From the NCBI GenBank assembly GCA_963575745.1, contig CAUYUJ010000037.1, forward strand, positions 620,001-671,342: a DNA stretch of 51,342 nt, read 5' to 3'. This DNA is from Prorocentrum cordatum (lineage: Eukaryota). The notes below the pieces were generated by a model, which ran no database searches, was not told the origin of the DNA, and saw nothing but the letters and a program-made list of their open reading frames with translations. This document shows, in pieces, positions 14,994 through 50,403 of this stretch. The stretch's first letter is position 1; every line of letters begins with the position of its first letter. Made by a program: the position numbers and the translations under genes.

Positions 14994-15695
14994 TGTGTGT
15001 ATCTATATAGCATGCAGTTGTACGCAGTCTGCGATCTTGACGCATGCGCTCATGACCTGCATGCTGAAGCTGTCACAGCTGATGTTCTCGCTCAAGAGAT
15101 AGAAGGAGGTACATTGAGAGAGAGGAAGAGAAAGGTGAGGAATATACATATATATATATAGAGAGAGAATGATATATAAAGAGAGAGAGAGAGAGACACA
15201 CACACGCACACGCACACAGACACACACAAACACAAACACACACGCACACACACACACACACGCACATTGAGACCGTAGACAGCACGGAATTCCAGAGTCG
15301 CCTCTGCAGATCGGGCGGTTCAGCGGATATCCACGCAAAGTAGGCCAACAAGCCGACACCAGTCTGCCCGTAGTTTTGCCTGTGACGCTGCGCGCCACCG
15401 GGACGTCTTGAGCCTGTATGTTCTCCTCCCCCCGCTCCTGCGCGGGGGGGGAGATGTTGCCGCACCGCCTGCGGTTGAACGGCTCGCCCAGAGGTCAGGC
15501 GATCGCAAACATTGATTAAGGGGGGCGTGGATTAGCGACGGGTCCCGTTTCCATGGGAAATCGCTTGTTTCCGCCGCCGAGCGAGGCGGCACCGGCCGCA
15601 TTTTGGGCAGGGTACCTCCCCCGATCCATGGATGTGGCGACCGCGCGCCAAATCCATGGATCGCCAATCCACGTTTGCGCGCCCCCGACCGGAGG

Positions 15696-15779
15696 ATGGA
15701 AGGGATGTTCGAGTGCAACATCTGCCTGGAGGAGGCCGCGAAGCCGATGGTTACGCGCTGTGGGCACCTCTTCTGCTGG
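15696..15779 (+). CDS. RING-HC E3 ubiquitin ligase (RNF5/RNF185/RMA1-like), exon A
   Basis: Encodes MEGMFECNICLEEAAKPMVTRCGHLFCW and ends at the GC donor TGG|GCGCCT. The true start of the gene is uncertain. Confidence 0.8.
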
Positions 15780-16419
15780 GCGCCTCCCGGGGGTGTGGAG
15801 CGCCAGCTGATGAGAGCCGGTCGCCTCTCGACTCCCAGCGCTGCTCATTCAGGTGCTTGTTCTCCTCCTGGTCTTGTATCTTCCCTGGCTCCTGCTTATG
15901 ATCCTGCTTATTCCCCGTGTTATCATGATTTTTCTCCTTATCATACAGGTGCTTGTTCTTCTGCTTACTCTCCTTATTCTCCGATTGGCTCTTCGCCCCG
16001 AACCCGAATTCACAGTGTAGTCTTGTCTCTCCGCTCTGTCGCTCTCGCCCCGAGCCCGCCCGCCCCGTCACGCTCCTTCCTCGCAGCCCGCTCCCTCCTC
16101 CTGCTCCTCCGCGCATGCGGCTGACAGTGATAGCACACGAGGTTTTGTCAGTGCCAGCCAGAGGTCAGGCAAGCCCAGGACCAGGATGAATCGCTCCAGA
16201 GCGCTCCAGAACACTCTCAGAGCGCTTCGGAACGCCCTGAAACGGCCGCGGGGCCCGATACATCCTCCAGAGCCGCCAGATCTCAGGGATCCCCGATTTA
16301 TCCCGATCCAAGTTTGTCTCGACCCTGGCTTCGTCTTGGGAGGAGGAGCACGGCGAGCTGGAAGGGCGCGCCACAGCGCACAGACGCTCGCCCTGCGGGT
16401 GGGGGGGGGTGCGGTGCAG

Positions 16420-20424: not shown

Positions 20425-23400
20425 GCGCCGGGGGGCCTCGGTGCACGCCCTCGCAGGGGCGTGTCTGGACCACACGGGACGCACACACAGAGACACACTC
20501 TTCGGTCTTCCGCGGGCGGGGGCAGCGCCCGAAGGAGGCGCAGGCGCGCACGCATCGGAAGAAAGGCAGGGAAAAGATCTTCACGGGACAGCAGCACACC
20601 ACACACACACACACACACCACCTCTGCCGCTCCCCCCTGCTCCTCCTCCTCCCCCCTGGCGCTGATACGTCTCCGGGGTTGATTCGGATCGCTCCATACT
20701 CAATTCCTGAAGCCCGTGACTGAATGACGAGTGGATCGGCTCCGCCGACCCCCAGATGAAGCGAGGGGCCCATGGAAAGTGTTAGGGCGAGTCATGGTCT
20801 TCAATGCTGTACCCACAACTGCACTCACGTTGGGACAACATGATTGGCACGGGGACAACCAATCATTTCGCGCGACTCTGCAGTCCAGGCAAGCCGACGT
20901 CAGCGGATCCTGCCAACGATGCACCACACATCGCTCTTCCATAGAGAGCCCTCCTCCGCAGAGGTGCGGGTAGGAGGGTGAGAAGGAGGAGGATGAGGAG
21001 GAACAGAGAGATAGAGAGAGAGAGAGAGATAATCAAACATAAGAGGGAATCAGAAAGAGACAGGGAGAGAGGAGAGAGAGAGAGAGAGAAAAAAAAAAGA
21101 CAAGACAAACCCAAAAAGAGACTGGACGCATACGAGGGTCCCTTGGAATGCCCTTCTGTCGCATCCACTTAGAGGCATATGGGGGGCTTTGGGGGGCCTC
21201 TCGGGGGGTGATTTGGGGCCCCCAGTGGGGTTCTTAAGGCTTCTTGGGGATCTCTTAGAGGCTTCTTGGGGCTTCTTGGAAGAGCATCGGGGGCCTCTGG
21301 GGGGCTCTTGGGGCCATATTCGTGGGACAGGCTCGAAATGTTAGTTCGTGTTCTCCCTCTTGGGCCCCTCTTGAGGCCCTCTTGGACCTCTCATGGGCCC
21401 TGTTCGGGGCCCCTGTGGCCGTTTGGGGGCCCTCTTGGACCGTATTGGGGCCCTCTTGGGGACCTCAGGAGCCGCCTTGGAACGATCTCGTGGGCCCCTT
21501 GACTTGTCTTGGACGTTGTCAGACGCAAAAGGAGCGCATGCGAAAAATATCGTGTTCCCGACGGGAATGAAGGCGATGTGGGCTTCTTGAGACCCTCTCA
21601 GCTATCCTCTGGGAAACTCTTGGGCCGTCTTGGAAGCTTCATGGGCGGTCTCATAGCCATCTCGGAATGTCGTCGTGAGGTTGTCTTGGGCCGTCTCGAC
21701 GCTTTTTTGGAGCACATTGGCACTCTACTTGGGCCGTTTTGAGGCTCTTGGGGGGCTCCAGAGGCTGCTCCAGGGGTGCGTTGGCGAGCACGTCCCCCGC
21801 CCCCCCCTTCCCCCTGACCCCCTCCCCACCCGTCCTTCTGATCGGATTTCAGATCCTCGGGGGAGGGGGAACAGGGGAGGGGGGCAGCCAATCATCTCAC
21901 ACGCCTTTGCACCCGCAGCAAGCGGTGGTCGGCGAATGTATGCAATCCACGCGAGGGTTTCCTGCGCCTGCTCTTCATTACCACCACCACAGACCAGGGG
22001 CGGCTGGTCCATAGCAGCGCGCCTCGCACGACAGAGGTAGGTCAGCCGTCCCAGGCCTGTAACGGTGGGGGTGACAGGTAGGCCCACCAGGGTTTGCATA
22101 TGTGTGCGAATGGTACACCCACGGTCATAGAGGGGAAGGTTACATGAGGTGGCCAGAATTGCGGTTTGGAGCTTTTTGGTCAGCGTGTCGCCCCGCTGGC
22201 TCAGGTCCATCATGTCTCGGCGCAACGCGCCAGCCACGCCCTGGCCCCCGAGCGTCAACGTCCCGATCCCCTCCCGGGCTCTTGCCCCGGCGGAGCGGAG
22301 CGACACGCTTTCAGCTCGCAGGGCACAGCGTGTCGCCAGGGCCGCCGCCGCGACACGCGAAGCGGACGCCCCCGACCGCAGACCTTGCCAGACCGTCAGT
22401 GCAGCCAGCGCGCTCATTCGAACGGCCGCACGGCCTCCGCACCGCACGCCGTATCTGCGGGGAGGCTTGGGGGGTCTGCTTCCGTCTGATGCCTGCGCTA
22501 TCACCGAGGAGGCTTGGCTGTGTCAGGTTGCGTTTGCCAATCTTCTCGTGCCTCCTTCGCTCCTCTGGATGATAATCAGTCCTACCCTCCTTCGGAGGAC
22601 TTCCAGTGACGTTCGAAGGCGCTCCTGTCAATGCTGCTGGGCTCCAGTCTTCACCCCCCAGAGTCCTCCACCTCCTTCTTCTCACACCCTTCTGCACTTC
22701 ACTCCGCCTCCCCCTCGTCCCCCCTTCCCCTTCTCCCTCTCCTCGTTCGCCTGCCTCTGAGGGGTGCCGCGCCTCTGATCAAATCCCAGCACCATTCAGG
22801 CTGCCGAAGATACGACTTGATCGATGCGTCTTGGGGACAATCATGAGCCAGCCAGACTGCTCTTTATCATCGTGCACTTGGCGTTACCCACTTGGCGAGA
22901 GTCCAAGTGTTACTCCTCCCAGCATTCAAGACACATAGAAGACAATGAAACTAACAAACTGTAGACAAGCTGAAGCTTGGATCAAGCTAAGCTGCAACAG
23001 TTGCATGGAACAGCCTGGATACGTTACAGGGCTGAGTTGCTTTGCTTTGTTTTTATTCGCTCCGCGCTGCTGTGCGTCTCGGTGCAGTGCGCTGCATGTG
23101 ATTGCCCCGCTTTCGTTGTTTTGTGTAGCGTTTGCGCCGCTTTGACTTGCGTTGCTTTGAACGGACTTGTCTTGTATATTGTTGGTTTGACTTGTTTTGG
23201 GATAACCTCACAGCATAGCACTAAGAAAGCATTGTTGAAGTATGCTCTGCTTGGTATCCCACTGCATCGCACTGCTAGCTGCGCGATGGATTGCCCTATG
23301 GGGTCCCCTGGATGCTCGTTGGTCAGAAGTGGCGCCCACGGGTTGCGCCATGGGGTGCCCCTTTGTTGCCGGGGGTTCTGTGTGGCCGCGGGCTGTGCAA

Positions 23401-25680: not shown

Positions 25681-26863
25681 CGTTCTGTGTTACTTGCTCT
25701 TGGCGCAGATGCCTCATCACGAATTAGAGCGAGGAGGGCCGCGGTTGGAGAGCTCTCGAATGCGATTACGCACCTGACCTCCTGATCGTGTACAATGGCT
25801 TGCATGCCTTCCCAGGGGACACGTGACGCGCCATCATAGAGACGAATGCATTGAGCCTTCCTACGGTGCATCACCGCAGCGACGGCATTGAATGGGCACG
25901 AGTCCCTCTTCGGACCACCCCTCGGTGCCAGAGAATGACGTATGAAGGCAGTCATTGACACTTCGATGGCAAAATGCACTGCCCAGGAGATCGCTGCGTA
26001 GGGGACCGTAAGGCGGGGTTGGACATTTTAGTCAATCCTATCGTGGTTTGGAATGGACAGGCGATCGGGAAAGCAGCATGGCGCACTGGTGGAACTTTGC
26101 CCGCGCCGCGCGCAACCTGAAATTCACCGGCGTGGCGGCGCAAAGCGCCGCGCAATGATGCGCCTGCACTCTTGAACGCAAGGCCCGACGATCTACTGGC
26201 GGTCATGCGCAAGTCAACTACCCCGCACGCCGTCTCGACCGATTCCCGCTGCAAGCTCAAACTGACGGGGGGGGGGGGGGGGCGCGCGCCAAATTGCATT
26301 TCACATAATGTCGCATACGCACATGCAAATTAAGATATTGACTGGCTTTACACAGTACTTTGCCCCGTTCTTTATTTGCGGGGCGGGGAAGAGCTATATA
26401 TTTCAGAATGTTTTACGCCGCGCCGCTTTGGGAAGGGCCAATCCGCCTTCATCAAATTACACCAGCAATCAAACTGCATTCCGATGTCTTCGCATGATTT
26501 GGCAAAAAACGAACGTTATCTTGCAAACGACCCGTGGGCAAGCAAGTCGCGCGCCCAATCGGTGCGAATCAGAATATATACATATATACATATATATATA
26601 TACAGCACCTCGCAGAGACGCTGGTCGGACTGCAACGAGTAAGGGCTCGGCTTGAAACCAAGTCCCCGGGCTCATTTTCCTGAACTGCTGCTGGTTGATG
26701 TCATCGTTGTCAGATTGACACTCGGCTGCAATCACAATGGCCACGATGCCGATCACCTACTCCTGGCCCAGCGGTCTGAATTGAGCAGCATCCGCGCACG
26801 CACTATTCACACCGCCAAGTATCCGGGGCACGGCTTTCCAAAGTTCTAGACGTTTCGCGTATC

Positions 26864-29800
26864 CCCACGGTTCTCTCAAAGCTTGCCAACGACCTGGGTC
26901 TCTGTGTCAGCATGTTTGACAGGATGTTTCACGCCCTCCGCGGCCAAGACACGGCGGTGGTCCACCTGTCGATTTGCTACCGCATGCATCCGCAGCTCCT
27001 CGCCTTTACGAACGCAGCCTACTACGGCAAGGGTATGGCGAGCGGCATCTTGAACCCGCTCAGAGACAGGCCCATAGTTGAAGGCATCCCATGGAGAGAC
27101 ATCTCACCCTGGGAACCTAGGCGCCCGACGGAACTCGCCAAGCTCACCAGTTCCAACGAGGCCGACCTCAGCGCGACCCTTGGGCAGTTGGATCCTCCGC
27201 AGAACGGCGACAGGCACCGCTTCCCTCTTGTCGACACACCCTCGTGGGAGGTTACGTCCGGCCTCCAGCCAGGCTACGCCAACCTCCCCGAGGCAGCGCA
27301 GGCTGTGGACATGGCGCGGGCACTCCTCCCCGAGCTTGAAAGAGGCACCACCGTCCGAATCGTCGTTGGCTACCAGCTCCAAACGGCCATCCCAATGGAC
27401 GGCTGGCCACAAGGCCCGCGCCACCTCAGCGGCGCCCTGCGAAACTCGAAGAGTGGCAACAAAGGGAAATCCGGCAAGGGAAAAGGCAGTGGCGGCCATA
27501 GCGGGCGAGATATCCCCGGCCCTGGAACAGACTCCCGAGAGCACGAGGTCGACACTCACCGCTGGGAAACCGTCTTTCGGGAGGGTCGTAACGCCCACGC
27601 AGCTATCGGCACAGCCTTCCCTGGTCTCAGACAGAGTGCAGGCAAGCACATGAAAAGTGGGGCCCTCAAGCTCACTACCATCGACTCCAGCCAGGGCGGG
27701 GAGGCAGACATCGTGATTGTGCTGACCACCAGGAGCAACGGGATGCACAACTGGGGCTTTGTCGATGACGCCAAGCGGCTGAACGTGGCGAACACGAGGG
27801 CCAAGCGGAACATCATGATGTTGGGAGACGGGCGCATGTTCGCCAACGCCACTTGGTCCCAGCTACGTGCGCTTTCCGAATGCGGGCGCTTGGCCCGCCG
27901 ATGGGCCAGGTTCGGGGGCGACGGACCCGCCGGCCACAGGCAATCCCTGGTCATAGACGATAGGTTTGACCCACTGCCCGACCTCGCCACCTGGGCGCCC
28001 TCCCCCGTTGCCTGGAGTTGCGACGCGAAGGGAGAGGATGGGCGCAAGGAGCTCGATGCGGCCAAGAGAAAAGCCCGTGGCGCTCAGGCGAACAGCTTCG
28101 CCGATCGCTTCAACGCCCCACTGGCCGATGACTTCGACTGGGACTCCCTGGGCAAGTTCATCTCTGACGGCCTAAACGAGATCCTCTCGACGCCTGCCTT
28201 CCATGTGCTCATCTACCTGGTGGCGGGGCTCCACCCGCGTGAATTCTCGCTGTCCGAGACACCGCGGCAGCCTGGCAGACTCGACCAGAAGGCGTGGTCG
28301 CACCTGGGCTTCCTGTTCGACATGTCCCTGGGTTTAGACGCGACCAATCTGGTCTACAACATGCTCTGGGCAGCCATAGTGTGGTCACTCGGCCTTGGCA
28401 CTCCCTGGGAGGACGCAGGCCACGCAGTGTGCAACGACTCCCTCCCCCCGGCGCCGCACGTCAGGGGCCGACGTGCAACGGCGGGCGGCGACAGTGCACT
28501 CCCAAGGGACTTGTCCGACAGGTTCCCCAGGCGTGGAGTGCAACAACCAAGGACTGCTGCAGGCACAGGAAGCACCCTGGGATGGTTGGCCTGCAGGAGA
28601 TCTTAGGTAGTGCTTCCGTCGATCCAACCAGGGGCCGACTCCGGGAGGAGATCAAGGACACAGACGGCCTCCCCATGGAGTCTTGCAAGACCCGCTCGCT
28701 CCTGGTGGTCATGATGTTAATGCTCCGCGAGCCGCGCGTGTTCTTGTGGCCGTTCCCACACGCCGAACAGGCTGGGGACGTGATTGCAGCCATCCTGGGT
28801 TTCTGTGTCCCGTGGCAGGAAGCGCATCGAGGGTTCCGGCAGGACTTCGCGAGCACCTAGGGCCTCACGCTGGAGGACCTGGCCGATCTCCACGGGCGCA
28901 TCGAGGCAATCCTGCCACACATCTCCAAGCTCGTAGCGGTGGCACACCACCACCCCGACGCACAGGCAGCTGGCTGCCCGCAGACCTGGAGTGAGTTGGA
29001 CAGGCATGACTTCCAGCTGAAGGCCCCGCTGCTCGTCCTCGAGAAGATCGTCCCAGCCGCCTCACTGACCCCCCTGGGCACGCACCACTGCCCCCTGTGC
29101 GCGCTTCACATCGCGCTCGCGGGCTCAGACGCCTCCCTGGGTGACGACGACCGGGGTGCTGGGCTCGCCTACATCGGCGGCGGATTCGCCCTTTCCAACA
29201 CCGATCTGAACGCCCCCATGCCGCCCGCCCCCGCCCCAGGTACCAAGCAGGACCCCCCGCACATCCTCGACGACAGGCTGTTGGCTGAGCAGAAGCATGG
29301 CAGGTTCAAGTGCGACAGATGCGGCAAGGATCAGCTACGCTCCACAGACGGTACATGGATCTCGGACGATACTCGCCTGATGGTAGCGCAGAACCGGCCC
29401 CAGGCCTACCTCGACGGTACAAACATGGGATGGCACTGCGAGATCTGCTGGATTCGACACCTGGAGGACAAGGGCATCCCAGCACCAACCGGTGCAACAG
29501 TCGCGGATAAGGTCAAGGAGTACGAACACTGGAGGACCGGTGGCGCAAGTGACAAGAAGGCGAGTGCCCTCCCCTCCCTGGGTCATCTCCCACTTGGCTT
29601 TGGATGCAGCCCCCAATCGGACACGAGGACACTGGCGGATCTCATCATGACGCCGGCGGGCATGCACAACCCAAAGCGCGCCAACACCACTATTCCCATC
29701 CTACGGGTCAGGGATGAGCGATTCGGCCTTAAAGCTGCAGAGAACAAGGTCTACTCTGCTCGGTGCGACACATGCCCCCCAGGGGCACCGCTCCTAGTCT

Positions 29801-31878
29801 GGAAAACCGGAGCACCTCCCCTGGGATGCTTCATATGGAAGCCAAAGGAAGGAGTGGGTGTGCCCGAGCAAGCAGGGCTGCCTCCCATTGAGCGGCGAGC
29901 CATAGCCTGGTGGGAGCGCGACTGGAATGCCACGTGGTGCTGCCGGCGGCGCCTGGTCCCCATCTGGAACATCGGGCCCGCGACTCTGGACCACATCATT
30001 GGGAGAGACTACAGGGCACTGCACCCAGCCGAGGCCCCTGTCCTGCCGACGCTCAAAAGCCGGGTCGCAGCGGAGGCCCCGGTGGACATACTCCGCACCC
30101 TTCCCTGGATGGGCGCCGACGCCAAGGCCGCAGATCGCTTCGCCAAGACAGGAGCGGCAAACCTCCCTGGGTCCAGCGCCTTGGGAACAGCCGCCCCCGT
30201 GGCCGAGCAGGCCCCCAGGACTCTCCCGCAACTCATGGAGCTCCTGCCGGAGCTGCCAGTCCCCCAGGGGCCGCTCCTGGACTGCAGGGAGGTCACCAAC
30301 CCCACGCTCAGGTCAGACGACCCCAGGAGTAGGTCTGGCAGCGGAAACGTGGTCGTTCAGCAGCTTCTCGTGACCCACCTCCGGGACTTCCACCCTGGAC
30401 TGGACTACCTTTGGCGGCAGTTCTGCCACGGCCATTGCGATGATAACATCCCAGAGCCTAAAAACGAATAAGCCTCGTGGCCAGGCGGTCGGTTGACGAT
30501 TTTTCTCAGGGCGGCGTACGGCGACGACATCCCGGGGGATTGCTCCCCGCGCAACCAGCCCTGGGAAGGCAAGCGGCTGGCCGCCGCGCGAGTCGTCTCC
30601 CACCTCACCAACGGCGAGAAACACAAAGAGGCCTGGGAGCGGCACGTCTCGACCCTCGCCCCGGCGAGTGGCTTCAACCCAGTCAGACACGAGATGGGCA
30701 CGCTGACGAGCTTCCTGCTCAGCCTCAGTGCCGATGCCCTGGCCACGACAACCATCACCTCCCTGGCGGAGTCGCATGTGCAGGCCATGAGCGAGAACAG
30801 GCCCGGCAACGAGGCAGGGCGCCCTCCGACACAGTGGCTGGGCAAGCCCAAAGTTCCAGCAAGAACCGTGGGCGACACCTCCACAGCGGTTGGTGCAGAC
30901 TACTCCCTGGGTTCGAAAGACGCCGGGATGCGCGCTGGAGACCCGAAGGTGCCTGGCCCAGCTGCCAAAGAGGAGGACGACGAAGATGAAATTCCTGCCA
31001 CTGAGCGAGCGGATTCAGCCGACTTTGGAAGCCCCCAAGAGGCTCCTCCCCCTGATGACTGTCCGGACACGGACACGGGTGCGGAAGATGATGGCCCTGG
31101 CGCCAAGCCGCCACAGCAAAGCCCAACGGCAGAGAGCATGGAACCCAGCTCCGACGACGACCCTTTGAACGCCTGGGGTGGTGCAGCCACCACTGAGCAG
31201 AACGCCAGTGGTTCCAGGGGGCCAGGTCGAGACGAAGCCGCGCGAGACAGAGGCGCAGCACAGGACCACCGCCCCGCACTACGCAATCCGCAAGCACCAG
31301 ACCGCAGGCTGGCCTACTCTGGCGCCACGGAACGACGCGTTCTCAACCAGCTGACCGACGCCCACGGAGGCCCCATGTACAAGGCTTGGTTGGGCTCCGT
31401 GGACTTGGAGCGCCGCGGAGAGACGCCCGCCAAGTGCATCACCAGACACCAAGTTGACTTGGGTGGAGTATTCTGTGTCCTTTGGACTGCATACACAAAA
31501 GGCATCCGGATCCCTGGGTCCAAGGATCCCAAGTCAGACCCGAAGCTGCACACGGACGCGAACATCAACAAGTTCTTGGATGACTGGAAGCATTGCGGTT
31601 ACGATGCCTACGCGATGGACAAGAAGTTTAACTTCTGCATCGACTGGGCAACGGTGCGGGCCGAATACATGCGCCACACCAGGACAGACGGCACGGGCAA
31701 GGGCAACCACCAACAGAACAGCTGGCACGACCGGGCAAGGAGCTCCTGGGACGCCTGGGACAACTGGCAGAGTGGCTGGAGCTCCGGCTGGCACGACGAC
31801 CAGTGGCAGTCAGGAGGCAAGCGTGGCGGCGGCAGGCCAGATGACCGCGGCGAGAAGAGGCAGCGGTGGGGCGACTGA
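26864..31878 (+). pseudogene. 5'-truncated, disrupted ~1,670-codon ORF: C-terminal half of an Upf1/DNA2-like SF1 helicase, Cys-rich domains and a Trp/Gly-rich tail
   Basis: Helicase motifs: PTVLSK..GLCVSMFDR, CYRMHP, YANLPEA, VGYQLQ, TIDSSQGGEADIVI and RLNVANTRAK. One frameshift falls near 28450-28590. ORFs 28294-28860, 28939-30471 and 30493-31878 share one frame, broken only by TAG at 28858 and TAA at 30469. No introns are needed. Confidence 0.85.
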
Positions 31879-31964
31879 GCCCCCTCCCCCCCCTTCCCCA
31901 AGCGTTTCATGTGCAGCGTCTGTTTTCCACACTCTGTGCAGCCTTCTGTTGCCTCATGGGTTAC

Positions 31965-32564
31965 GTTTCATATACTCGGGCGGCGGCCTGCCGCCGCCCT
32001 CCCTGGTACACGCACTTCCTGCCTTTGGACCCAAGTGTGTTTACCAGCAGTACCGTCTGCATGGCATCACGGGGGCGCGTTGCGTGCAGGCCATAGTTGG
32101 CCCCGGCCCTGCTGTAGTTGTTTTCACCTCTGGCCCTGTTGGACTTCTTCCCCCGGCCTCGCGGCTCTGTGACCGTCGCCGATGGCGTTGCCTCGTCTCA
32201 GTCCAGAACCGCACTCACCATGCTCCCTGGGTTCTCAAAGGTACTGCGGCTTCAGCTGCTCTTCAGTTTCATATACACACGTGGCGGCCTTCCGCCGCCC
32301 TCCCTGGTACACGCACTTCCTGCCTTTGGACCCAAGTGTGTTTACCAGCAATACCATCTGCATGACAGCGCTGGGGCGTGTTGCGTGCAGGCCATAGTTG
32401 GCCCTTGGCCCCGCTGTAGTTGTTTTCACCTCTGGCCCACGGGATCCGTCCGCCGGCCTCGTGGTTCTGTGACCGACGCAAAGATGGCTTCGCCTCGTCA
32501 CTGTCCAGTACCGCACTCTTGCTCCCTGGGTTTCTCCATGGACAGCGGCCTTCAGCTGCTCTTC
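31965..32564 (+). repeat. ~301-bp tandem duplication in the 3' UTR of the helicase element
   Basis: GTTTCATATAC..CCCTGGTACACGCACTTCCTGCCTTTGGACCCAAGTGTGTTTACCAGCA..TTCAGCTGCTCTTC starts at 31965 and again at 32266. Confidence 0.9.
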
Positions 32565-35381
32565 TCTGCGCTCTCCTGGGTGCGACTGTGGGCGGGTGGC
32601 TTCCCGACAGCGGGTCTTCAACGTAGACCAGACGGTGCACTTCTGGTGCCGTTGAGGTACCCCTCCGGTGACAATGACTTGGGGTGCCCACCCGTAGGAC
32701 TTTGCCGCGTTCGGACGCAGGGACCAGTTGCGCACCGACCTGCGCGCACCGGCCTCAGCGTGGCAGCGGGTGGTCAGAAGACTGATCCCACATCTGTGCA
32801 GTGGTTCGCTGTTCCTTTGCTGGCCGCCAGTTTCGGTTGCCTGGACTGGCATCATCCCACCGTCGCGCCCCCGCTCCACCCGGACGAGCGGTCTTCCCTC
32901 GGCTTCTTCGTGACCACTGACTGTTGCTTGGGCTGCAGCTGGTAAGAGGCAGCACCGCTCCTCGAGCGCCCTCGTCTACTCCACTCAGGTACGCCAGGGT
33001 ACCTTGGTTAGGCGGCTCCGGTTGTGCTGGTCACGTTAGTTGCTTCCTGGTACGCGTCCCTGTTCTAATCTGGTTGGCGTCGCTTGCGATTTGTGGCCGT
33101 TAGTGGAGTGGGACTGTTGTCCCTTCCGCATGGCGTCACATCATGTCACTTGATGGTCGCTTGCGTTCGCACCTATTCGCGGCTGTCTCCTGGGCCTGGC
33201 GTGCTTGGTTCGGTTCGACACCACGAACTCCACGCCTTTGGGCTGTGTGGGTGCGCACTCTGGAGCTGCGACGGTTCGCTGGCGCTGTCAGAGCGAACCT
33301 TTCGTACGGGATGCCGACTGACGATTGCTTTTGTGTCTTTCGGTTGGTGCTTGTGCGTGGCAGGTCCCCTGGATCCCCTCGCACTTCTTTCCCTCCGAGG
33401 TTGGGGACTTCCTCCTGTTCAGTTAGTGTCTCAGACCGCTTGGTTCTGTTGCCTCTGACACGGTGGGGGTCTTGCATCGCGCCACTTTGGCAGCGTAGTT
33501 ACTTCTCCCTGGGCGCTGGGTTCCCATCAGACTCCCTGGGCAGCAGCACCCTTGCACCTGCCGCCCGGCGCCGGCCGCGGTACGCGCGCGCCCCTGGCCA
33601 ATTTATAGCGGCCGCAGCCCGACCGTTACCCGCCGCCCGCCCGCGGCTGTATAAAAAAAGTATCCCCACCAGTCGGGCTTTAGCCGAGTTCTGCGACAGG
33701 GTGCCATGATAAGTGAGGCCGCTCTCTGTGCCGCCGTTCCTTCTCTTACTGGCGCTGTGTGCCTCGTCTGACGTCCGCTGCGTCGCCTTCGCTCCCTCCC
33801 CCCCCTCTTGCCCCCGCTTGTGATTCGGCTGGAGCTTGGCGCCGCAAGGGCGACTTCTCCCTCCGTTCCGCCTGGTCTCCGCGCCTCTGCGTCCCCACCT
33901 GCTGGGATGCCTGTGCCGGTCACCTCTAATGAGGGTAATTTTGTCCCAGGCACGTGCATTCGCCATTGCGGCTTACGCGCTTCTTTGGCAAATTATCTAC
34001 GGCATGTGCCCCAGCCGTTTATCCCGCTTCTTGACCCTTGTCTTGGAGCCGCCGACCAAAAAAGTATCCCCACCAGTTCGCTCCCGCTCCCTGGCCGTCG
34101 CCTTGGAGCCGCTAACCAAAAAAATGTATCCCCACCAGTGCTCTTGCCGCCTGACCGTCGTCTCGCGGCCGCGACCGAAAAAGTATCCCCACCAGTGCCG
34201 TTTGCAGTCAGCTCAGCCAGCCTCCCTTCAGCCCGCGGCCCCGCCGGCGGTAGGTTCTGAGTGTGGCTTAGCCGCTGCTCGTTTAGGCCTGCGCGCTGCT
34301 AGTTTGACAGGCCCGTGGCCCGGACCTCTCAGCTCGGCGACTGCGACTCCGCGTCCGCCCGCGACCAAAAAAGTATCCCCACCAGCCCATTCAGAAACGA
34401 TGTTTAGGCGAGTTGAGAGGTGATCAGGGAAGTGCGGGAGCAAAGAGGTGGACGGCCGAACCGCGTGAAGAAGAGAGGGGGCGAAGGAGAAAATTTGATG
34501 GATGGATGAGGGAGTAGGGCGAAGGAGGATGAATAGGATGAGGAGGAGGAGGAGGAGGAGGAGGAGGAGGAGGAGGAGGAGGAGGAGGAGGAGGAGGAGG
34601 AGGAGGAGGAGGAGGAGGGGGAGGAGGAGGGAGGAGGAGGAGGAGGAGGAGGAGGAGGAGGAGGGGGAGGAGGAGGATGAGAAGGGATAGGAGGAGGAAC
34701 GAGGAGGAAGAAAGCAAGCAAAAGGGCCAGAGTTCTCTTGGATGTTTCTCGGAGCCTCTCGGGGTATCTCTTGGCCGTCTTGGGGCTCCCTTGGCGGTCG
34801 TGGGGGGCTCTTCGGCGTCTTGGGTGCCTCGGGGGGGCCTCTTGGGGCCGCTTGGGATCCTTTTGGGGGCCTCCTGGGGGCCTTTTGGGGGCCTCTTGGG
34901 GCCATCTTGGGACCTCGACGACGACGACCGACGCCGAGGCCCCTTGAGATCCTCGAGGCCAGAATTTCCGCATGTGTTTTCGCTTTCCCAGGCCAATATC
35001 CAAAACAATAAATCACACAATTAAGTTTGAGTAACGAAATAAGTCCCGTAAGTTCCATATGTTCATATTGGTGATAAGAGCCGCATGTCATTATTCAACA
35101 TATCGCTACTATGATGTAAGGTTTTCGATTTGCCCATCGATTTTATGAGTTGAAAGGGGTGGGCGGTATCATGTTGACATTTGATATTGCAAGCACACTG
35201 TGCACATACAACTCAACTTGAGGATTGCTCAAGTCCCTATGATGTTGCTGATGCCCAGCTTCTCTGGGCAACCCTCTCAGGAGGGACCTCCCCGGCGATC
35301 GGCCGGACGGGGGACACCGGTGAGACAGCGTCGAAGCGCCAGGAGGGATGATGCGGGGCCGAAAGAGCTTGGGCGATCCAG

Positions 35382-35546: not shown

Positions 35547-36725
35547 CTCTCTCACACACAGACATTGTGCACACACAGGCAAATTCTGACACACGTTTGC
35601 ACTCGAAGGGTTTCTCGTCGCGCATCTTGGTTGCCTCATTCATCCTGCCGATGAGCCACCCTACAACCAACATATACACATAACGGGGGACCGGGTCCTG
35701 GGGGCCCAGGCCGAGAGCTCGACCACAAATGTGTGGACTGGGCTGCCTGGAGCCTTGCCGGCGCGCCAGAGGCCCTCTGAGATCGCCCGCCCGAAGACGG
35801 CCCTGGATTGCCTGAAAACACGGTTCGAGACCGCCAGAACGGCCCATGACGGCTCCAGATTGTTGAGAATTGGCCATCGCCTGTCCAAGAGGTCTCCAAG
35901 GCACCCCAAGAGGCCTCCACGAAGCTTCCCAAGAGGTAAAGGTTTAGACGGATTTGGGTTTTCTTGTTTTTTGTCGGTTTCCCAAAGCTCCAAGGCGGCC
36001 CGAGACGCCTCCAAGGACGCCCCAATATTGCCCAAGAGGCTCCCAAGAGAGCCCCAGGACGCTCCGAGAGAGTTCCACGACGGCCCCGAGAGGGCTCCAA
36101 GACGGCCCAAGAGGCCTCCAAGACGGCCCAAGAGACCCCCGAGACTACTCCAGAGAGGGTCCAGACGGGAGCGGACATCTTGAGCCCTCGGCCTCGAGCG
36201 GCCCCACGGAAGCCCAGAGAGGCCCCTAAGAAACCCCAAGAGGCCCGAAGAGGCTTCCAAGAGGCCCCCAACCCCCAAGAGGGCCGAAGAGGCCTCCAAG
36301 AGGCCCCCACCAGGCCTCCAGGAGGCCCCCACGAGGCCTCCACGAGGCCCCAAAGAGCCAAATTCATTCATATGTCAAAAGTTTTGGAGGATTTGGGCGT
36401 TCTCGCCTGTGCGGCTTTCCGACGTTCCGAGGCGGCCCAAGAGGCTTCCAAGATCGCCCCACCATTGCCCAAGAGGCCCCCAAGAGCGCCCCAGCTCACC
36501 TCAAGAGTTCTCCAAGGCGGCCGCAGAGGCCCGCAAGACGGCAGTCCCAGAGACCTCCAGGACGTCCCGATAGACCTCGACGAGCGCTCCCCAGACGGGA
36601 CCAAGAGCTAAAATGAATTGATATTCCTGACGCTTTTGAACGACGCCCCCAGGCGACCCGAGAGAACTCCAAGACGCTCAAAGAAGCCTCCATGAGGCCT
36701 CTCAAGAGGGCCCAAAGAGGCAAAA

Positions 36726-36744
36726 GTCATTGTTCTGGCTCAAG
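36726..36744 (+). other. Degenerate dinoflagellate spliced-leader relic
   Basis: GTCATTGTTCTGGCTCAAG resembles the 3' part of DinoSL (GCCATTTTGGCTCAAG). It sits at the boundary between repeat and unique DNA, about 115 bp upstream of the ATG of an intronless gene. Confidence 0.55.
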
Positions 36745-36858
36745 CAAGGCTGCCTCCAAGCTCTTGTGGCCTCTTGCATCCGAGCCCGCACTGCGGGCTC
36801 GGATGCACGAAGCTGCGGGCCCCGCAGCGAACCCGTCAGCTCCGGCCGACCGGACCCC

Positions 36859-38430
36859 ATGCTGCGCAGCCCAGCGATGCAGCTGGCCGCCAAGGGCAAG
36901 AGAGACGGGGAAAGCTCACGCCCGGTGGGCCGTTCCAGCAGATTGGGCAGCTTGGGGTCGCATCCGTCACCTAGCCGCAGGGCTTGCTCCAAGACGCGGC
37001 TGTCGATGCTGGCTGCAGATGCCAGCGGCGTGAGCCTGGCTGGAGGCGGACAGCGCCACTGCATCATGCGTGGTGCTGTCGCCGACCCTTTAAAGGCTGT
37101 GCCAGACGCCCAAGGGTGCGCGACCCCCAGCACAGCGGCTGGCTCACCCGCGTCCTCTCGTTCGGGCTCGATGCCTGCGAGCAGCCGCCCAGTCTCGAGG
37201 CTGCCTGAAGCAGGGAGCTGCGGAGCGCCAGTGGCGGTGGTCGACATGATCCGCTCCAGGCGTGGTGGTCGCAGGCCCCCGTCTGGGGCGCCAGCGCGCG
37301 AGGCACCGGAGCTTGCGCGGAGCGGTGCGGGCAGCGGCCCCGCTTCCTGGGGATCGTCGCGCACCGCGGGCTCGGCGGCGGCGGCGGTGCAGAGCCACTG
37401 CAGGGACGTCAGGGAAGTCTGCCGCCTTGCCAAGACCCTGCAGCTGCCGGTGGCAGAGGTTGAGCGGGCATGCGCCCTCTTCCGGGACCATGCTCAACCC
37501 CTCGCCCCGGGTGCCGAGATGCTCAGAGACGGGCGCCTTGGCCACGAGCAGTTTGCCAGGCTCGTGCGGAGCCACCTGACTCGTGACAGCGGCGGGGTGG
37601 CGGAGTGGTCCATTAACAGGGTAATGCATGCCCTCAAGAGCGTGCGCGAATCCGATGGTGTCAACCAGAATCTTTGCCTGAGCTTCGAAGAGTTTGTTGT
37701 GTGCATGCACATCCTGTCTCTCGATCGTGCGGCGGAGGCGAAAGAGGCGGAGCGGAGCCACGGCAGGGACGTCGCGGAGGTTTGCCGCCTTGCCAAGACC
37801 ATGCAGTTGCTGGTGGCAGAGGCGCGGCGGCTGTACACCCTCTTCGGGGACTACGCCGAGCCCCTCGCCCCAGGGGCCAGGATGGTCAGGGACGGGCGCC
37901 TTACCCAGGAGCAGTTTGCCAGGCTCGTGCGGAGCCAGCTTACGTGGGACAGCGCCGTCTCAGCAGAGCAGCACGTTGAGAGCATAATGTCTTCAGTCAG
38001 GAAGGTGTGTGAGGCCGCTGGTGTCAAGCGGGGTCGCGGTCTGAGCTTCCATGAGTTTTTGGAGTGCACGCGCATCCTGTCTTTCGACGGTTGCATCCTA
38101 TCTGGGGAGGAGCGCGGACTGCGCAGGATGGCCCAGAAGTACGACCTAGGATTCGTCGAGATCGACAGGTACAAGAAGGTGTTTGACGAGCTAGACGCAG
38201 AACGCAGCGGCAGAATTGGCCGCCAGGCATTGGATAGCTTTTTCAACAAGTTTGGCATCTTCGCGGAGGACATACGCCACGCCGACACGCGCAAACACGA
38301 CATTTGGCTCCTAGCGGATCCAGACCTCAAGGGTAGCATCGACTTTGAAGCGTTCCTGATCTTCAACTTGAAGTACGTTAGCCGAGGAGCCGAAGGCCTC
38401 TATCAGTACTTTGGGGCATGCGCGGCCTGA
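36859..38430 (+). CDS. Intronless EF-hand calcium-binding protein (523 aa from the first ATG) with an internal 121-aa duplication
   Basis: EF-hand-like loops FDELDAERSGRIGRQAL and ADPDLKGSIDFEAFL. The block RDVxEVCRLAKTxQLxVAE..DGRLxxEQFARLVRS occurs twice, at about 37391 and 37754. Confidence 0.8.
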   Translation: MLRSPAMQLAAKGKRDGESSRPVGRSSRLGSLGSHPSPSRRACSKTRLSMLAADASGVSLAGGGQRHCIMRGAVADPLKAVPDAQGCATPSTAAGSPASSRSGSMPASSRPVSRLPEAGSCGAPVAVVDMIRSRRGGRRPPSGAPAREAPELARSGAGSGPASWGSSRTAGSAAAAVQSHCRDVREVCRLAKTLQLPVAEVERACALFRDHAQPLAPGAEMLRDGRLGHEQFARLVRSHLTRDSGGVAEWSINRVMHALKSVRESDGVNQNLCLSFEEFVVCMHILSLDRAAEAKEAERSHGRDVAEVCRLAKTMQLLVAEARRLYTLFGDYAEPLAPGARMVRDGRLTQEQFARLVRSQLTWDSAVSAEQHVESIMSSVRKVCEAAGVKRGRGLSFHEFLECTRILSFDGCILSGEERGLRRMAQKYDLGFVEIDRYKKVFDELDAERSGRIGRQALDSFFNKFGIFAEDIRHADTRKHDIWLLADPDLKGSIDFEAFLIFNLKYVSRGAEGLYQYFGACAA

Positions 38431-45002: not shown

Positions 45003-45887
45003 ACATATACATAATAATAACAATAATAATAATCATAATAGTCATAATAATAAGAATAATAATAATAAGAAGAAGAAGAATACTAATAATAATAAGAAGA
45101 ATAATAATAATGATAATAATAATAATAATAATGATAATAATAATAATAATAATAATAACGGCGCACCGGGTCCGGGGGCCCGGGGCCGCGACCACGACCA
45201 CAAATGTGTGTGCCCAGGCTCTTGGGGCGCCCCTGAGGCCCTCAAAACGCCCAAGGAACGCGCCAAGAGAACCCGAAGACGCCCCAAGACGGACCCAAGA
45301 CACCCAAAGCCCGCTCCAAGATGCCCAAGATGGCCCCCAAGACACCTCCAAAAGCCTCGCAGACGCTCTAAGAAGCCCCCGAGAGGCCCCCCAGGACGTC
45401 GCCAAGAGGCAAACATAGCCCCACTCCTTTCGCAAAACGTGCATATTTGGCATATTGATTGTTTTCGCTGTCGTACCGCTCTTGACGACATCAGAGGTCT
45501 CCAAGACCGCCCCAAGACAGTCCAAGAGGCGCCACCGAGGGCCCCAAGACGGCCCAAAAGAGCCCCAGGACGGCCCAAGAGGCGCCCAAGACGGCCCAAA
45601 CGGGCCCCCAAAGGCGCCCAAGAGAAGCCCAAGATTGGGAAGTCCAACCGACAATTCGAGCTTTCCGCCAAAACAAGCGCCCGGGAGGCCCCAAGAGGCC
45701 CCGAAGAAGCCCCAAGAGGCCTCCAAGAGGCCACCCAGACGCCGCAAGAAGGCCCCACGAGGACCCCCGAGAGAGCCCTGAGAGCCCTGAGGGCCGGAAC
45801 CTCGACCACACATGTGGGCCCCGGAGTCCCGGCGGCCCCAGGCGGTCTCGAGACACCCCCAAGACGCCATCCAGGGGCCTCTGGCGA

Positions 45888-47770
45888 CGCACGATGCGTT
45901 TTAAGCTGAGGCCCCCAAGACGCCCCGAGAGGCCTTTCAGATGGCGCCCAAGAGCGCCCCGAGAGGGCAAACTCGTTGATTTCCATTGTTGTTTTTTTCA
46001 ACTGTTTTTTTTGCATTCTCGTTGTTTCGTGTTTCGGGCACTAAAGCACCACCCAAGAGGCTCCCAAAACCTCCAAGACGGCCCAAGAGGCCCCAAGAGG
46101 CCAAGAGGGCCCAAGACGGCCCAAGAGAGCCCCGAGACGGCCCCAGAGCCGCCCAAGACGGCGCAAGAGGGTCCCAAGAAGGCCCCAAGAGGGGCCCAAG
46201 AGAAGGAACGCGAACTGAAAAAACAAGCTCTTTGCCCCAAGATGCCCCCAGAGGCCCCAAGAGGCCCCAGAGGCCCCATGAGGCCCCCAAGAGGCCGCAC
46301 GATGCATTTTAAATTGCCCTGGAGGCCCCCAAGATGCCCCAAGAGGCCTTTAGGATGCCGCCCAAGAGCGCCCAGAGAGGGCAAAATCGCTGATTTCCAT
46401 CTGTTTCTTGAAATGTTGTTTCTCGCTGTCTTGTGTTTCCGGCGCTAAAGCACCGCCCAAGAGGCTCCCCAAACCGCTCCCAGACGGCCCAAGAGGCCCC
46501 CAAGAGGGCCCCAAGACGGCCCAAGAGAGCCCCGAGACGGCCCCAGAGCCGCCCAAGACGGCGCAAGAGAGTCCCAAGAAGGCCCCAAGAGGGGCCCAAG
46601 AGAGGGAACGCGAATTGAAAAATCAAGCTCTCCGCTCCAAGATGCCCCCAACAGGCCCCAAGAGGCCCCCGGGAAGCCCCCAAGAGGCCCCACGAGGCCC
46701 CCAAGAGGCCGCACGATGCGTTTTAAATTGCCCCAGAGGCCCCCAAGACGCTGCAAGAGGCCTTTGAGATGGCGCCCAAGAGCGCCCCGAGAGGGCAAAC
46801 TCGTTGATTTTCATGTTTTTTTCAATGTTTTTTGCATTCTCGCTGTTTCGTGTTTCCGGCGCTAAAGCACCACCCAAGAGGCTCCCCAAACCGCTCCCAG
46901 ACGGCCCAAGAGGCCCCCAAAAGGGCCCCAAGACGGCCCGAGAGAGCCTCGAGACGGCCCCAGAGCCGCCCAAGACGGCGCAAGAGAGTCCCAAGAAGGC
47001 CCCAAGAGGGGCCCAAGAGAGGGAACGCGAACTGAAAAATCAAGCTCTCTGCCCCAAGATGCCCCCAGAGGCCCCAAGAGGCCCCCAGAGGCCCCATGAG
47101 GCCCCCAAGAGGCCGCACGATGCGTTTTAAATTGCCCCGGAGGCCCCCAAGACGCTGCAAGAGGCCTTTGAGATGGCGCCCAAGAGCGCCCCGAGAGGGC
47201 AAACTCGTTGATTTTCATGTTTTTTCAATGTTTTTTGCATTCTCGCTGTTTCGTGTTTCCGGCGCTAAAGCACCACCCAAGAGGCTCCCCAAACCGCTCC
47301 CAGACGGCCCAAGAGGCCCCCAAAAGGGCCCCAAGACGGCCCGAGAGAGCCCCGAGACGGCCCCAGAGCCGCCCAAGACGGCGCAAGAGAGTCCCAAGAA
47401 GGCCCCAAGAGGGGCCCAAGAGAGGGAACGCGAACTGAAAAATCAAGCTCTCCGCCCCAAGATGCCTCCAAGAGGCCCCAAGAGGCCCCCGGGAAGCCCC
47501 CAAGAGGCACCAAGAGGCCCTCAAGAGGCCCCAAGAGGCCCCCAAGACGGCCCAAGAAAGCCCCGAGACGACCCCCAGAGCCGCCCAAGACGGCGTAAGA
47601 GAGTCCCAAGAAGGCCCCAAGAGGGGCCCAAGAGAGGGAACGCGAACTGAAAATCAAGCTCTCCGCCCCAAGATCCCCCCAACAGGCCCCAAGAGGCCCC
47701 CGGGAAGCCCCAAGAGGCCCCCAAGAGGCCCCCAAGAAGCCCAACTCAGGCTCCAAGAGGCCCCAAGACG
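45888..47770 (+). repeat. Tandem satellite with a ~404-414-bp unit, about 4.5 copies, CCAAGAGG-rich
   Basis: CGCACGATGCRTTTTAA occurs at 45888, 46296, 46710 and 47114. Confidence 0.9.
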
Positions 47771-48054: not shown

Positions 48055-48100
48055 CTAGCTAGAACTTGAGCGCGCGCGAAGCGCGCGCGATGGTTCTAGT
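48055..48100 (+). mobile_element. Helitron-like 3' terminus, copy of 2966-3011
   Basis: CTAGCTAGAACTTGAGCGCGCGCGAAGCGCGCGCGATGGTTCTAGT, followed by a microsatellite. Confidence 0.6.
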
Positions 48101-48816
48101 GTATATATATACACACACACGCATGCGTTCATGCATACATGTGTATAGATACATGCATGCATGCAACCACATGTATATATATATATATATACATTTATAT
48201 AGTGTGCCACATGCATTTGCAAAATGCATATAACCATACATTCATGCATGCATATACATGTGTAGAGTGTAGACATCTTGGCTAAATAAACACATACTTC
48301 GTTACGTACGTACTCGCAGGCGTGCATCAATGCATGCATGCATACGGACAGACATGCATCCATGCATGTATACATACATTCATACAGACACGCGGTCCAT
48401 AAGAAGCTCGTCTAGAGCGATGCAAGAAGAACACATCATTGATTGTCCACCGTTTTCGTTTACGGATTTGCAGCTTCTCGCTATTTCTGCTTCCCGACTG
48501 CTCAAGACGTCCCAACAGGTTCCCAAGACCGCCCCTGGGAGCTCCAAGAGGCTGCCACGAGGGTGCCTCCACTGCCTACGAGGGCCCAAGGACGGGTCGG
48601 GAGCCACCCAAGACGGCAGAAGGGGGCCCGAAAAGATACCCCAGGACGGGGCAAGGAGCCCCCAATATGCATCAAGACCGCGGCCCAAAATGATTTCAAG
48701 ACGCTCAAGTGGCGTCTTTCGAGGCCGAAAGATATGCAAAGTGTTCCCCGAGAGCGCCGAATGAAGGACAAACCATTGATCTGCCTTCGGCTTTTGAAGA
48801 ATTTTTGACGCTTCGC

Positions 48817-49428
48817 ATATCCCCACAAGCTTGTGCACTTGTTGCGTCGGCCTATGCGCCGTCGTAACCAATTATCTTGCCCTGTGCCCCTGCCGAGACC
48901 ATCCCGCTTCTTGGATGTGTCCTTGAAGCCGACAATAAAAAAAAGTATCCCCACCAGCGCCCCTGCGAGTGAGGCCTCCATCTGTTCCCCCCTTTCTCCT
49001 GCCGCCGCTTGCCCTTGCGCCCGCTGTGTCTCTCCTGTTCCTTGGCCTCCTCCTCGTTTCATGGACGGTGCGGCCTCAGCCACTCCGTGCCGCCACAGCG
49101 CGGCGTGCTCCACGCCCTTGCGCGCTGTTCGGTACGGTCAGAGCTTGGCGCCACTTGTGCGACTGCTCCTTCCGTCCGTTTTCAGTTTGGTGTTTGCGTT
49201 CCCCTGTTTCGGGCCGCCAGCGTCCCAATGAGGGTCATTTTGTCCCTGGCACGTGCACCCGCTGCCGCGGCCTATGCGCCCCAGCAGCTAATTATTTCGC
49301 CCTGTGCCCCAGCCAAGTCCGTCCCGCTTCTTGGATCTGTCCTTGGAGCCGCCAATCAAAAAAAGTATCCCCACCAGTTCCGCCTGACCGTCGTCTCGCG
49401 GCCGCGACCGAAAAAGTATCCCCACCAA
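48817..49428 (+). mobile_element. Array 2: three stacked A-tailed inserts separated by RTATCCCCAC(CAR) repeats
   Basis: Motif copies at 48817-48826, 48945-48957, 49365-49377 and 49416-49428. A-tracts are A8, A7 and A5. Inserts are about 118, 407 and 38 bp. Confidence 0.85.
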
Positions 49429-50403
49429 CCCATCCAGAATTGATTGCCAGTTTTCTTGGGGCCTCTTTGGAGGCTATCTTGAGCAATGCTCGGCTAGAGG
49501 CTGTCGGAGGCCATCTTGAGCCATGCTCGGCTATCTTGGGCCACCGTGAGGCTGCCTTGAGGCCTCTTGGAGGTCTGTCGGAGGCTATCTTGAGCCACGC
49601 TTGGCTATCTTAAGCCAGTTTGAAGGCCATCTTGGGCTATCTAGGGTTCTCTTGGAGCCATTTTGAGCCAAAAAGGGCGGGGTGGAGGGTCTTTGGGAAA
49701 GGCTGGGAGGCCTCTTGGGGCCATCTTGGGCCCCATGTCTCAAAAAGAGGAGGTGCCTTAATTCGGATCCCCCCCGCCGGAGGCTCTCAAACGGCGTCTT
49801 GGGGCCGTCTTGGAGCGCTCTTGGGCGCCTCTTGGGCGATCTTGGGGCCGTCTTCGGCCTTCTTGGGCCCCTCTTGGGGCCCTTTTGGGCCATCATGGTG
49901 CCATCTTGAGGCTTCCAAAGCCCATCGGAAGCGGAAAGGCGAGAATGCCAAAAACATTGATTTTCCCTTGGGTTTGGAGTGTTTTGGGATCTTGGAATTC
50001 GCCGTGGAGGGCTCGAAGGGCACTTGGATCCGTCTTGGGCTGTCTTGGGGCCTCTTGGGGGTATGTCGGAGGCTATATTGACCCATCTTGAAGTAACATG
50101 GGCCATCTTGGAGGCCATCTTGCGCCTTTGAACGCCTCTTGGAGCAATCTTGGGCCATCTTGGACGCTCTAACGCCTCGCGGCGCGCCCCGTCCAGGCCC
50201 AGGGGAGGGAACGGGGGGGAGGGGCTTCAGTGGAAGAGAAAAGAAACAAAACGCGTTATACCACCTAAGCCCAGAGGGCTGGTGGGATTTGTGCGTTTCA
50301 CTTTTCTGCTTCCCGTCCGTCCAAGACGGTCCAACAGGCTCCCAAGACCACCCCACGACTGCCCACGAGGGCCAAGAGACGGGCGACGGTCAACTCGCAT
50401 AGT

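Follow-up and report, generated by a model that had tools for sequence, protein, structure and literature searches.

Introduction

Processed pseudogenes made in trans by machinery of the long interspersed element 1 (LINE-1, L1) type carry a poly(A) end and a flanking duplication, are truncated at the 5' end, have lost their function and show a microhomology-type 5' joint. The role of L1 in their formation is treated in PMC5131818 and PMC3747384. More specialised is the element R1 in the 28S ribosomal DNA (rDNA) of Drosophila, where, in the account of Stage & Eickbush (2009, PMC2718515), a 14-bp duplication separates tandem copies, and the tandems are attributed to further elements that inserted into the duplication bordering the 5' end of a copy already present. 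The same account describes that R1 lineages making no duplication rarely form tandems, and that 5'-truncated R1 and R2 copies have microhomologies of 1–5 nt or untemplated letters at the 5' joint. Tandem transposon dimers are explained by double insertion at a duplicated target in the preprint of McGurk & Barbash (bioRxiv 10.1101/158386). The current study concerns a stretch of 51,342 nucleotides from the dinoflagellate Prorocentrum cordatum (assembly GCA_963575745.1, contig CAUYUJ010000037.1, positions 620,001 to 671,342, forward strand; hereafter the window), in which copies of a 13-base target repeat separate eight inserts, one of them a unit with a Upf1-like helicase coding sequence.

The two arrays formed by these inserts resemble R1, as described in that account, in using one fixed site, in having a duplication (13–14 bp in the two systems) between head-to-tail copies, in a rigid 3' and a flexible 5' junction, and in 5'-truncated copies with microhomology or extra letters at the 5' junction. 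They differ from R1 in several respects: the target is a conserved block of ~58 nt and not rDNA (with neither an Rfam family nor a tRNA found in it), the inserts are very small pieces with no full-length element or enzyme gene seen in the window, one unit appears to derive from a foreign mRNA, and the host is a dinoflagellate. As in the tandems reported in the McGurk & Barbash preprint, a duplication-making element with strong site preference would preserve its target and form tandems; those tandems are mostly full-element dimers in Drosophila, whereas here 3–5 units of mixed families are joined. The helicase unit shares with L1-made processed pseudogenes all the features listed above (poly(A) end, duplication, 5' truncation, lost function, microhomology-type joint), but L1 inserts almost anywhere at loose TT/AAAA-like sites, whereas insertion here is at one exact 13-mer, which a dedicated retroposon family uses as well.

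Results and Discussion

The helicase unit

The helicase unit (26864-33659, 6.8 kb) is the leftmost insert of array 1, and is very probably a 5'-truncated mRNA retrocopy lying in a 13-base landing site that has been used repeatedly by one retroposon family. Events of this kind are already known (site-specific target-primed retroposition, R1-like tandem growth, processed pseudogenes), but the family, the 13-bp site and the host group are apparently undescribed in the literature searched. The unit bears the signature of an A-tailed processed retrocopy of the mRNA for a Upf1-like helicase of ~2,500 aa, because a truncated coding sequence, an untranslated region (UTR) and an A-tail are flanked by the same 10 letters.

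The reading frame 26780..28606 contains RIPTVLSKLANDLGL, with the codons ATC CCC ACG GTT CTC at 26861-26875, and the frame through 26864 reads Pro-Thr-Val-Leu-Ser. Alignments to the yeast and human Upf1/NAM7 structures (PDB 2xzl, 2xzo) start at Pro 26864 (query residue 29), as does the tblastn match to the relative P0002, and both long relatives (P0001 and P0002) have GDP(L/H)QLPPTVLS at the helicase start point. Pfam AAA_12, the C-terminal RecA-like half, was detected in the remnant (4.3e-25), which holds motifs III-VI only, motif III being present as its tail. The best relative, P0001, is an unnamed European Nucleotide Archive (ENA) protein of 2541 aa with AAA_11 and AAA_12, in which GPPGTGKT and DEAAQ precede GDPLQLPPTVLS. 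The remnant is collinear with residues ~799-2540 of P0001 (tblastn, two frames, 50% then 36% identity) and contains no intron-sized gaps; about 799 N-terminal residues are absent, and the copy has no upstream in-frame ATG. Residues 1-780 of P0001, the Walker A/B region, had no match in the 51 kb window (tblastn, E<=10), and no AAA_11 was found among the window open reading frames (ORFs) scanned with Pfam, which comprised 61 of the 66 of at least 200 aa and, in the range of 110-199 aa, 150 of 195.

These results bear out the preliminary description of this DNA, in which the helicase ORF was said to be cut at the target repeat with its homology beginning inside the repeat, CCC ACG GTT CTC was read as P-T-V-L from the tail of motif III, and Walker A and B were said to be absent. 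With its target-site duplication, the unit has the properties of an insert. Its own stop codon (TGA, 31876-31878) is followed by a 3' UTR of 1.8 kb, the A7 end of which lies directly against a full 13-mer, and the letters GTATCCCCAC flank both ends of the unit. A collinear coding sequence with its 3' UTR, a poly(A) end, a flanking duplication and disabling lesions, as are typical of a retrocopy, are all found.

The remnant resembles the Upf1-like superfamily-1 (SF1) helicases (Pfam AAA_11 plus AAA_12; PDB 2xzl, 2xzo) in keeping the AAA_12 half and the tail of motif III. It is unlike them in having lost the N-terminal half, which binds ATP; the proteins of the parent family are moreover giant, with 2,500-2,900 aa and long uncharacterised regions. 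Motifs I and II (Walker A and Walker B), by which a functional SF1 helicase of this type is recognised, were found neither in the copy nor anywhere in the window. Because of a frameshift, two stops and the lost ATP-binding half, the helicase copy is, judging from its sequence, a non-functional pseudogene rather than a helicase of a new kind.

Searches with P0001 of viral contigs and genome contigs gave no related loci, and a search of the protein atlas gave generic AAA_12 helicase clusters only. P0013, a public fragment of 122 aa that is 91% identical to the window copy, joins the equivalent of ~28600-28690 straight to ~29290 onward, skipping ~200 codons; therefore, further rearranged or dead helicase copies probably exist elsewhere. 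Within the retrocopy 3' UTR a tandem duplication of ~300 nt was observed (31960-32110, 32270-32420), and the translated ORFs contain two occurrences of one peptide-like stretch, GGLPPPSLVHALPAFGPKCVYQQY.

The target repeat and its two arrays

The 9-mer TATCCCCAC has 10 copies in the window, all on the + strand (starting at 26860, 33661, 34065, 34127, 34184, 34374, 48818, 48946, 49366 and 49417), against 0.20 expected from the mean of 100 dinucleotide-preserving shuffles, none of which reached 10. Six copies lie in array 1 (26859-34385) and four in array 2 (48817-49428). In 8 of the 10 copies the full 13-mer GTATCCCCACCA(G/A) stands right after a run of 5-8 A, and the corresponding junction pattern AAAAAGTATCCCCACCA, with at most one mismatch allowed, had 8 matches in the window with 0 expected. 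Seven of these eight A-run-linked 13-mers are identical. The A-rich 3' end (A5-A8) is joined at the same base in all eight, which is the fixed position seen in site-specific retroposition, and the 13-mer stands between all units as a target-site duplication of constant length, apart from the left ends of the arrays (10/13 and 11/13).

The two copies without a preceding A-run are the leftmost repeats of array 1 and array 2. In array 1, this repeat consists of GTATCCCCAC followed by GG and retains 10 of the 13 nt. In array 2 it reads ATATCCCCACAAG, which matches 11 of 13 and is most simply a 13-mer of full length in which two bases have been substituted. The preliminary description held that both leftmost repeats lack an intact CAG/CAA. 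This is the case in both arrays, the other eight repeats ending in CACCAG (seven) or CACCAA (one), but the array-2 copy is not clearly a shortened duplication.

Outside the window, a 16-mer scan of metagenomes returned 118 loci, each a single match in an unrelated, mostly bacterial-looking context and none with array features. A gapped two-repeat pattern had 0 matches in viral contigs and 0 in genome contigs, and in the literature the 12-mer and its reverse complement were met with in one unrelated paper only.

The target locus

When the left flank of each array was joined to its right flank, the computed empty sites of the two loci aligned over ~58 nt around the 13-mer and diverged beyond; the flanks of locus 1 and locus 2 are ~78% alike. 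The same site has thus been used at two loci (n=2) that are 14 kb apart and have homologous flanks. As the ~58 nt of homologous flank are found at both, the 13-mer site is taken to sit within a short dispersed repeat, the same at the two loci. The computed empty sites contained no tRNA, and the window no Rfam family. With no more than 3-4 mismatches allowed, the window contained no unoccupied copy of flank plus 13-mer. A spliced-leader relic was also considered and rejected, the 15-nt leader core having one match at <=3 mismatches and 81 of 100 shuffles doing as well.

The 5' junction of the helicase unit

The letters AT at 26861-26862 are incompatible with a Pro codon and the G at 26869 differs from the target C, so the joint lies within CCCCAC (26863-26868). 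Since the relatives have Pro-Pro-Thr, the parent should read CCN-CCN-ACN, and CC.AC, four of the last five target letters, is forced to match; by our own arithmetic, the chance of such a match under a blunt random joint is ~1/256. An overlap of insert and target is likely at this junction, with a length of 2, 5 or 6 nt according to two parental wobble bases. The last three target letters (CAG) were lost. Of the CCCAC microhomology proposed in the preliminary description, the overlap itself stands as likely, with CC.AC forced by Pro-Thr, but its length is fixed only to the range of 2-6 nt.

At the internal 5' junctions, a T was observed right after the CAG of the repeat in five of six inserts (33673, 34077, 34139, 34196 and 49378; not 48958), for which we calculate P ~0.002 with T at ~20%. 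By analogy with the 5' joints of known elements, this T may represent untemplated letters added at the end of the complementary DNA (cDNA).

The small inserts

The seven inserts other than the helicase unit (38, 44, 49, 115, 177, 391 and 407 nt) have 3' ends that align and 5' ends that differ, i.e. variable 5' truncation with a common 3' end. Their tails share a conserved 8-bp hairpin ~10-15 nt before the A-run (49326-49349 in X407; the other tails end at 34063, 34125, 34182, 34372, 48944 and 49415). In the tail alignment 89.3% of cells were paired, against 75.5 +/- 3.5 in shuffles (none of 500 reached the value) and 36-55% when the partner was slid, and four pairs had changes on both sides. 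With seven related sequences, this covariation is supportive of the hairpin and not conclusive. The reverse transcriptase may recognise this hairpin.

A covariance model of the tail found only the seven copies in the window (E 1.7e-19 to 8.4e-8, low by construction), the next match having E 0.13; the family is therefore confined to the target site within the window. A MAFFT alignment suggested that the helicase tail might be a family tail, but this was rejected, its score being reached by 59-253 of 500 shuffles. The nhmmer tail profile gave no match to the helicase tail, the covariance model none at E<=10, and this tail folds no better than shuffles (z = -0.32). Because it lacks the family hairpin, the helicase mRNA was probably a bystander copied in trans, the small inserts probably being copies of RNA that belongs to the machinery itself (the 3' end of a LINE, or a partner resembling a short interspersed element, SINE). 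The insert X391 begins with an open frame (33673-33709) that ends RALAEFCDRVP-stop, possibly the last codons of an element ORF.

Proposed mechanism and alternatives

By analogy with target-primed reverse transcription, an endonuclease would nick the bottom strand immediately left of GTATCCCCACCAG, and the freed 3' end would prime reverse transcription on the A-tail of an RNA. A cut of the top strand 13 nt downstream would leave each insertion flanked by a 13-bp duplication, and the target, kept intact by the duplication, could then be used again, giving head-to-tail arrays. Seven of the eight inserts would be copies of the family's own RNA; once, a cellular helicase mRNA would have been copied instead. 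In that case cDNA synthesis would have ended ~2.4 kb before reaching the start of the coding sequence, the end of the cDNA would have been joined to the top strand at the letters CC(C)AC common with the target, the CAG of that repeat copy would have been removed, and the copy would later have gained its frameshift and two stops. Since no reverse transcriptase or endonuclease gene was found among the window ORFs scanned, we infer the enzyme, and its nick positions and the mobilisation in trans are likewise drawn from the analogy.

Several observations weigh against retroposition into a family's landing site. An autonomous partner was not found in the ORFs scanned, and may lie elsewhere in the genome. 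The lack of introns is weak evidence, as the full-length relatives, too, are encoded without interruption on their own contigs (ORFs of 2535-2541 aa). In public assemblies 75 clusters are related to the helicase C-terminal region (E<=1e-3), many of them short or broken and some 79-92% identical, and the helicase gene may thus be multi-copy. The A-tails are short (5-8 A), the copying of an RNA without the family hairpin would be unexpected if the enzyme needs the hairpin, and the analysis rests on two arrays.

The same clusters, together with uninterrupted ORFs of 2535-2945 aa in the full-length relatives and a 3' junction exactly like that of the small inserts, could be taken to mean that the helicase unit is itself the large element of the family, a mobile gene with a poly(A) tail, which encodes a Upf1-like protein of ~2,500 aa and uses this site. 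We consider this very improbable: Pfam detected no reverse transcriptase, endonuclease or integrase in P0001, P0002, P0010 and P0012, the helicase 3' tail has no detectable likeness to the family tail, the window has only one helicase unit, and a search for homologues of near length found none at 1e-10. Helitrons, which are known by the fusion of a Rep endonuclease with a Pif1-type helicase and have neither a target duplication nor poly(A), were rejected: in the copy and in P0001, P0002 and P0012, Pfam detected AAA_11/AAA_12 alone and neither Rep nor PIF1, and a duplication and an A-tail are present. It is scarcely credible that no retroposition occurred and that a deletion or rearrangement beside a chance copy of the motif removed the 5' half of a helicase gene already resident there. 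This explanation would agree with the failure to find a parent gene or an empty site, but a full 13-mer follows immediately upon the A7 that closes the 3' UTR, ten of its letters recur at the truncated 5' end, and seven other inserts at two loci have the same layout. Another improbable explanation is that each array was built in one event, by template jumps onto RNAs with read-through target, in which case the internal 13-mers would come from RNA and not from local duplication. The identity of seven of the eight A-run-linked 13-mers between loci with flanks only ~78% alike, the shortness of some inserts (38-49 nt) and the extra T after CAG in five of six internal inserts would agree with it, the T as untemplated addition before a jump; such addition by the R2 polymerase at template ends is described in PMC2718515. 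However, template jumping requires RNAs that end exactly after CCAG, and nothing shows such RNAs. Moreover, the units look unequal in age (X115 versus X407), and R1 arrays of the same layout are explained by repeated insertion in the account in PMC2718515.

Retroposition by repeated insertion leaves two possibilities for the order of events, and the age clues within the window conflict. By analogy with R1, the chances are about even that, as the preliminary description proposed, new inserts enter the upstream (left) copy; growth at the upstream copy until that copy is damaged is the inference drawn for R1 in the account of Stage & Eickbush, and is thus mechanistically credible here. Left entry with capping predicts what is seen at the 5' junctions, where all six internal ones keep the full 13-mer and both leftmost repeats, but none of the eight others, lack CA(G/A) (1/45 by our arithmetic, n=2 arrays). 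The leftmost helicase copy is also only lightly decayed, with 2 stops and 1 frameshift in 5 kb, and does not look old. It is nevertheless a reasonable, if less than even, possibility that insertion takes place in the rightmost copy, beside the right flank, or in any copy that is intact, in which case the deviating repeats on the left would be the oldest or most error-prone 5' junctions and not caps. In agreement with this, X115, the leftmost insert of array 2, has 14 private differences over 116 columns (7 of them C>T or G>A) against 4 in its right neighbour X407, Y44 and Y38 are identical between the arrays (36/36) and located at or near the right ends, and the right flank is conserved between the loci, as is the left. 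Differences that arose in the source lineages before insertion could explain the first two of these points.

In the preliminary description the left end was called hairpin-proximal and its growth was compared to leader-end spacer acquisition in CRISPR. No hairpin or leader common to the left flanks of both arrays was found, the conserved hairpin lying in the 3' tails of the inserts. The comparison can be kept as an analogy only, at most for the logic of polar repeat-spacer-like growth, with no shared parts: the duplication of the target here would be RNA-templated, the 'spacers' are mostly copies of one element, and the left flanks have no leader in common.

Significance

It is conceivable, although unlikely, that GTATCCCCACCAG within its dispersed repeat of ~58 nt serves a site-specific machinery of reverse transcription as its dedicated landing pad, that this machinery takes up cellular mRNAs of kilobase length in addition to the hairpin-tailed RNA of its own, and that the arrays grow at their upstream end until an imprecise 5' joint caps them. 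If true, this would be a natural, polar, site-specific locus of retrogene capture, and a first sequence signature for the enzyme behind rampant dinoflagellate retroposition. Retroposition is counted among the main causes of the expansion of dinoflagellate genomes, and its machinery is not described in the literature read here. The terms 'target site', 'reverse transcriptase' and 'truncat' have 0 occurrences in the retrogene review PMC6050394, as have 'target site', 'target-primed' and 'non-LTR' in the 2024 genomics review PMC11453091, and a literature search on target-primed reverse transcription by dinoflagellate elements without long terminal repeats (non-LTR) found nothing related. Taken together, the fixed position of the nick, the duplication of 13 bp, the RNA with its hairpin tail and the captured mRNA of 6.8 kb would form a concrete signature by which the enzyme can be searched for genome-wide. 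Site-specific retroelements are under development for targeted gene insertion, as presented in PMC13580325, and a natural site that accepts a foreign RNA of 6.8 kb would be relevant to such work.

Coordinates and neighbouring sequences

The coordinates of the individual features are given in table 1.

Table 1. Features of the two arrays and of the helicase unit, with positions in the window (R1 to R5 here are repeats of array 1).
Feature	Position	Strand	Basis
Left flank, locus 1; homologous to left flank of locus 2 (48788-48816)	26831..26858	+	Alignment of computed empty sites
Leftmost repeat of array 1, GTATCCCCAC; 5' junction of helicase unit	26859..26868	+	Repeat search, sequence reading
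CCCCAC zone, target or insert ambiguous; candidate microhomology, 2-6 nt	26863..26868	+	Target TCCCCAC then CAG; relatives Pro-Pro-Thr-Val
Upf1-like SF1 helicase coding remnant, motifs III-VI	26864..31878	+	Pfam AAA_12, PDB Upf1/NAM7, tblastn
Frameshift, frame 2 to frame 1	28460..28500	+	Two tblastn segments overlap on P0001 1340-1368
In-frame TAG; Trp in P0001	28858..28860	+	Comparison with P0001
In-frame TAA; Glu in the 92%-identical fragment P0014	30469..30471	+	Comparison with P0014
Retrocopy 3' UTR with ~300 nt internal duplication, ends in A7 (33653-33659)	31879..33659	+	Sequence reading
Repeat R1, GTATCCCCACCAG	33660..33672	+	13-mer with preceding A-run
Insert X391, family copy, A6 tail	33673..34063	+	Family alignment, covariance model
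Repeat R2	34064..34076	+	13-mer search
Insert X'49, same family, 5'-truncated	34077..34125	+	Family alignment, covariance model
Repeat R3	34126..34138	+	13-mer search
Insert Y44, same family; 36/36 identical to Y38, other 5' end	34139..34182	+	Family alignment, covariance model
Repeat R4	34183..34195	+	13-mer search
Insert Z177, same family tail	34196..34372	+	Family alignment, covariance model
Repeat R5, rightmost of array 1	34373..34385	+	13-mer search
Right flank, locus 1 (CCCATTCAGAAACGAT); homologous to 49429-49446	34386..34402	+	Alignment of computed empty sites
Leftmost repeat of array 2, ATATCCCCACAAG (11 of 13)	48817..48829	+	13-mer search
Insert X115	48830..48944	+	Family alignment, covariance model
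Repeat of array 2	48945..48957	+	13-mer search
Insert X407, 3'-tail hairpin at 49326-49349	48958..49364	+	Family alignment, covariance model
Repeat of array 2	49365..49377	+	13-mer search
Insert Y38	49378..49415	+	Family alignment, covariance model
Rightmost repeat of array 2, GTATCCCCACCAA	49416..49428	+	13-mer search

Upstream of both arrays, a run of ~15 G followed by (CG)n was observed, as well as (TA/TACA)n microsatellites (26267-26290, 26574-26605; 48090-48390). The window, which has a G+C content of ~60%, also contains extensive fields of tandemly repeated 10-11-nt units (CCAAGAGGCCC / GGCCATCTTGG type), in one orientation at 35990-36590, 45220-47600 and 48460-48660, and in the opposite orientation at 21170-21500, 34800-34930 and 49460-49850. 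Array 2 is flanked by fields of opposite orientation, and the GGCCATCTTGG orientation is found downstream of both arrays.

Two further ORFs on the + strand had Pfam matches. The ORF 15516-16121 contains a RING-type zinc finger (zf-RING_UBOX, 6e-07). The ORF 36640-38427 was assigned to the EF-hand proteins, and its only named relative is a Prorocentrum cordatum protein with 53% identity over 55% of the query.

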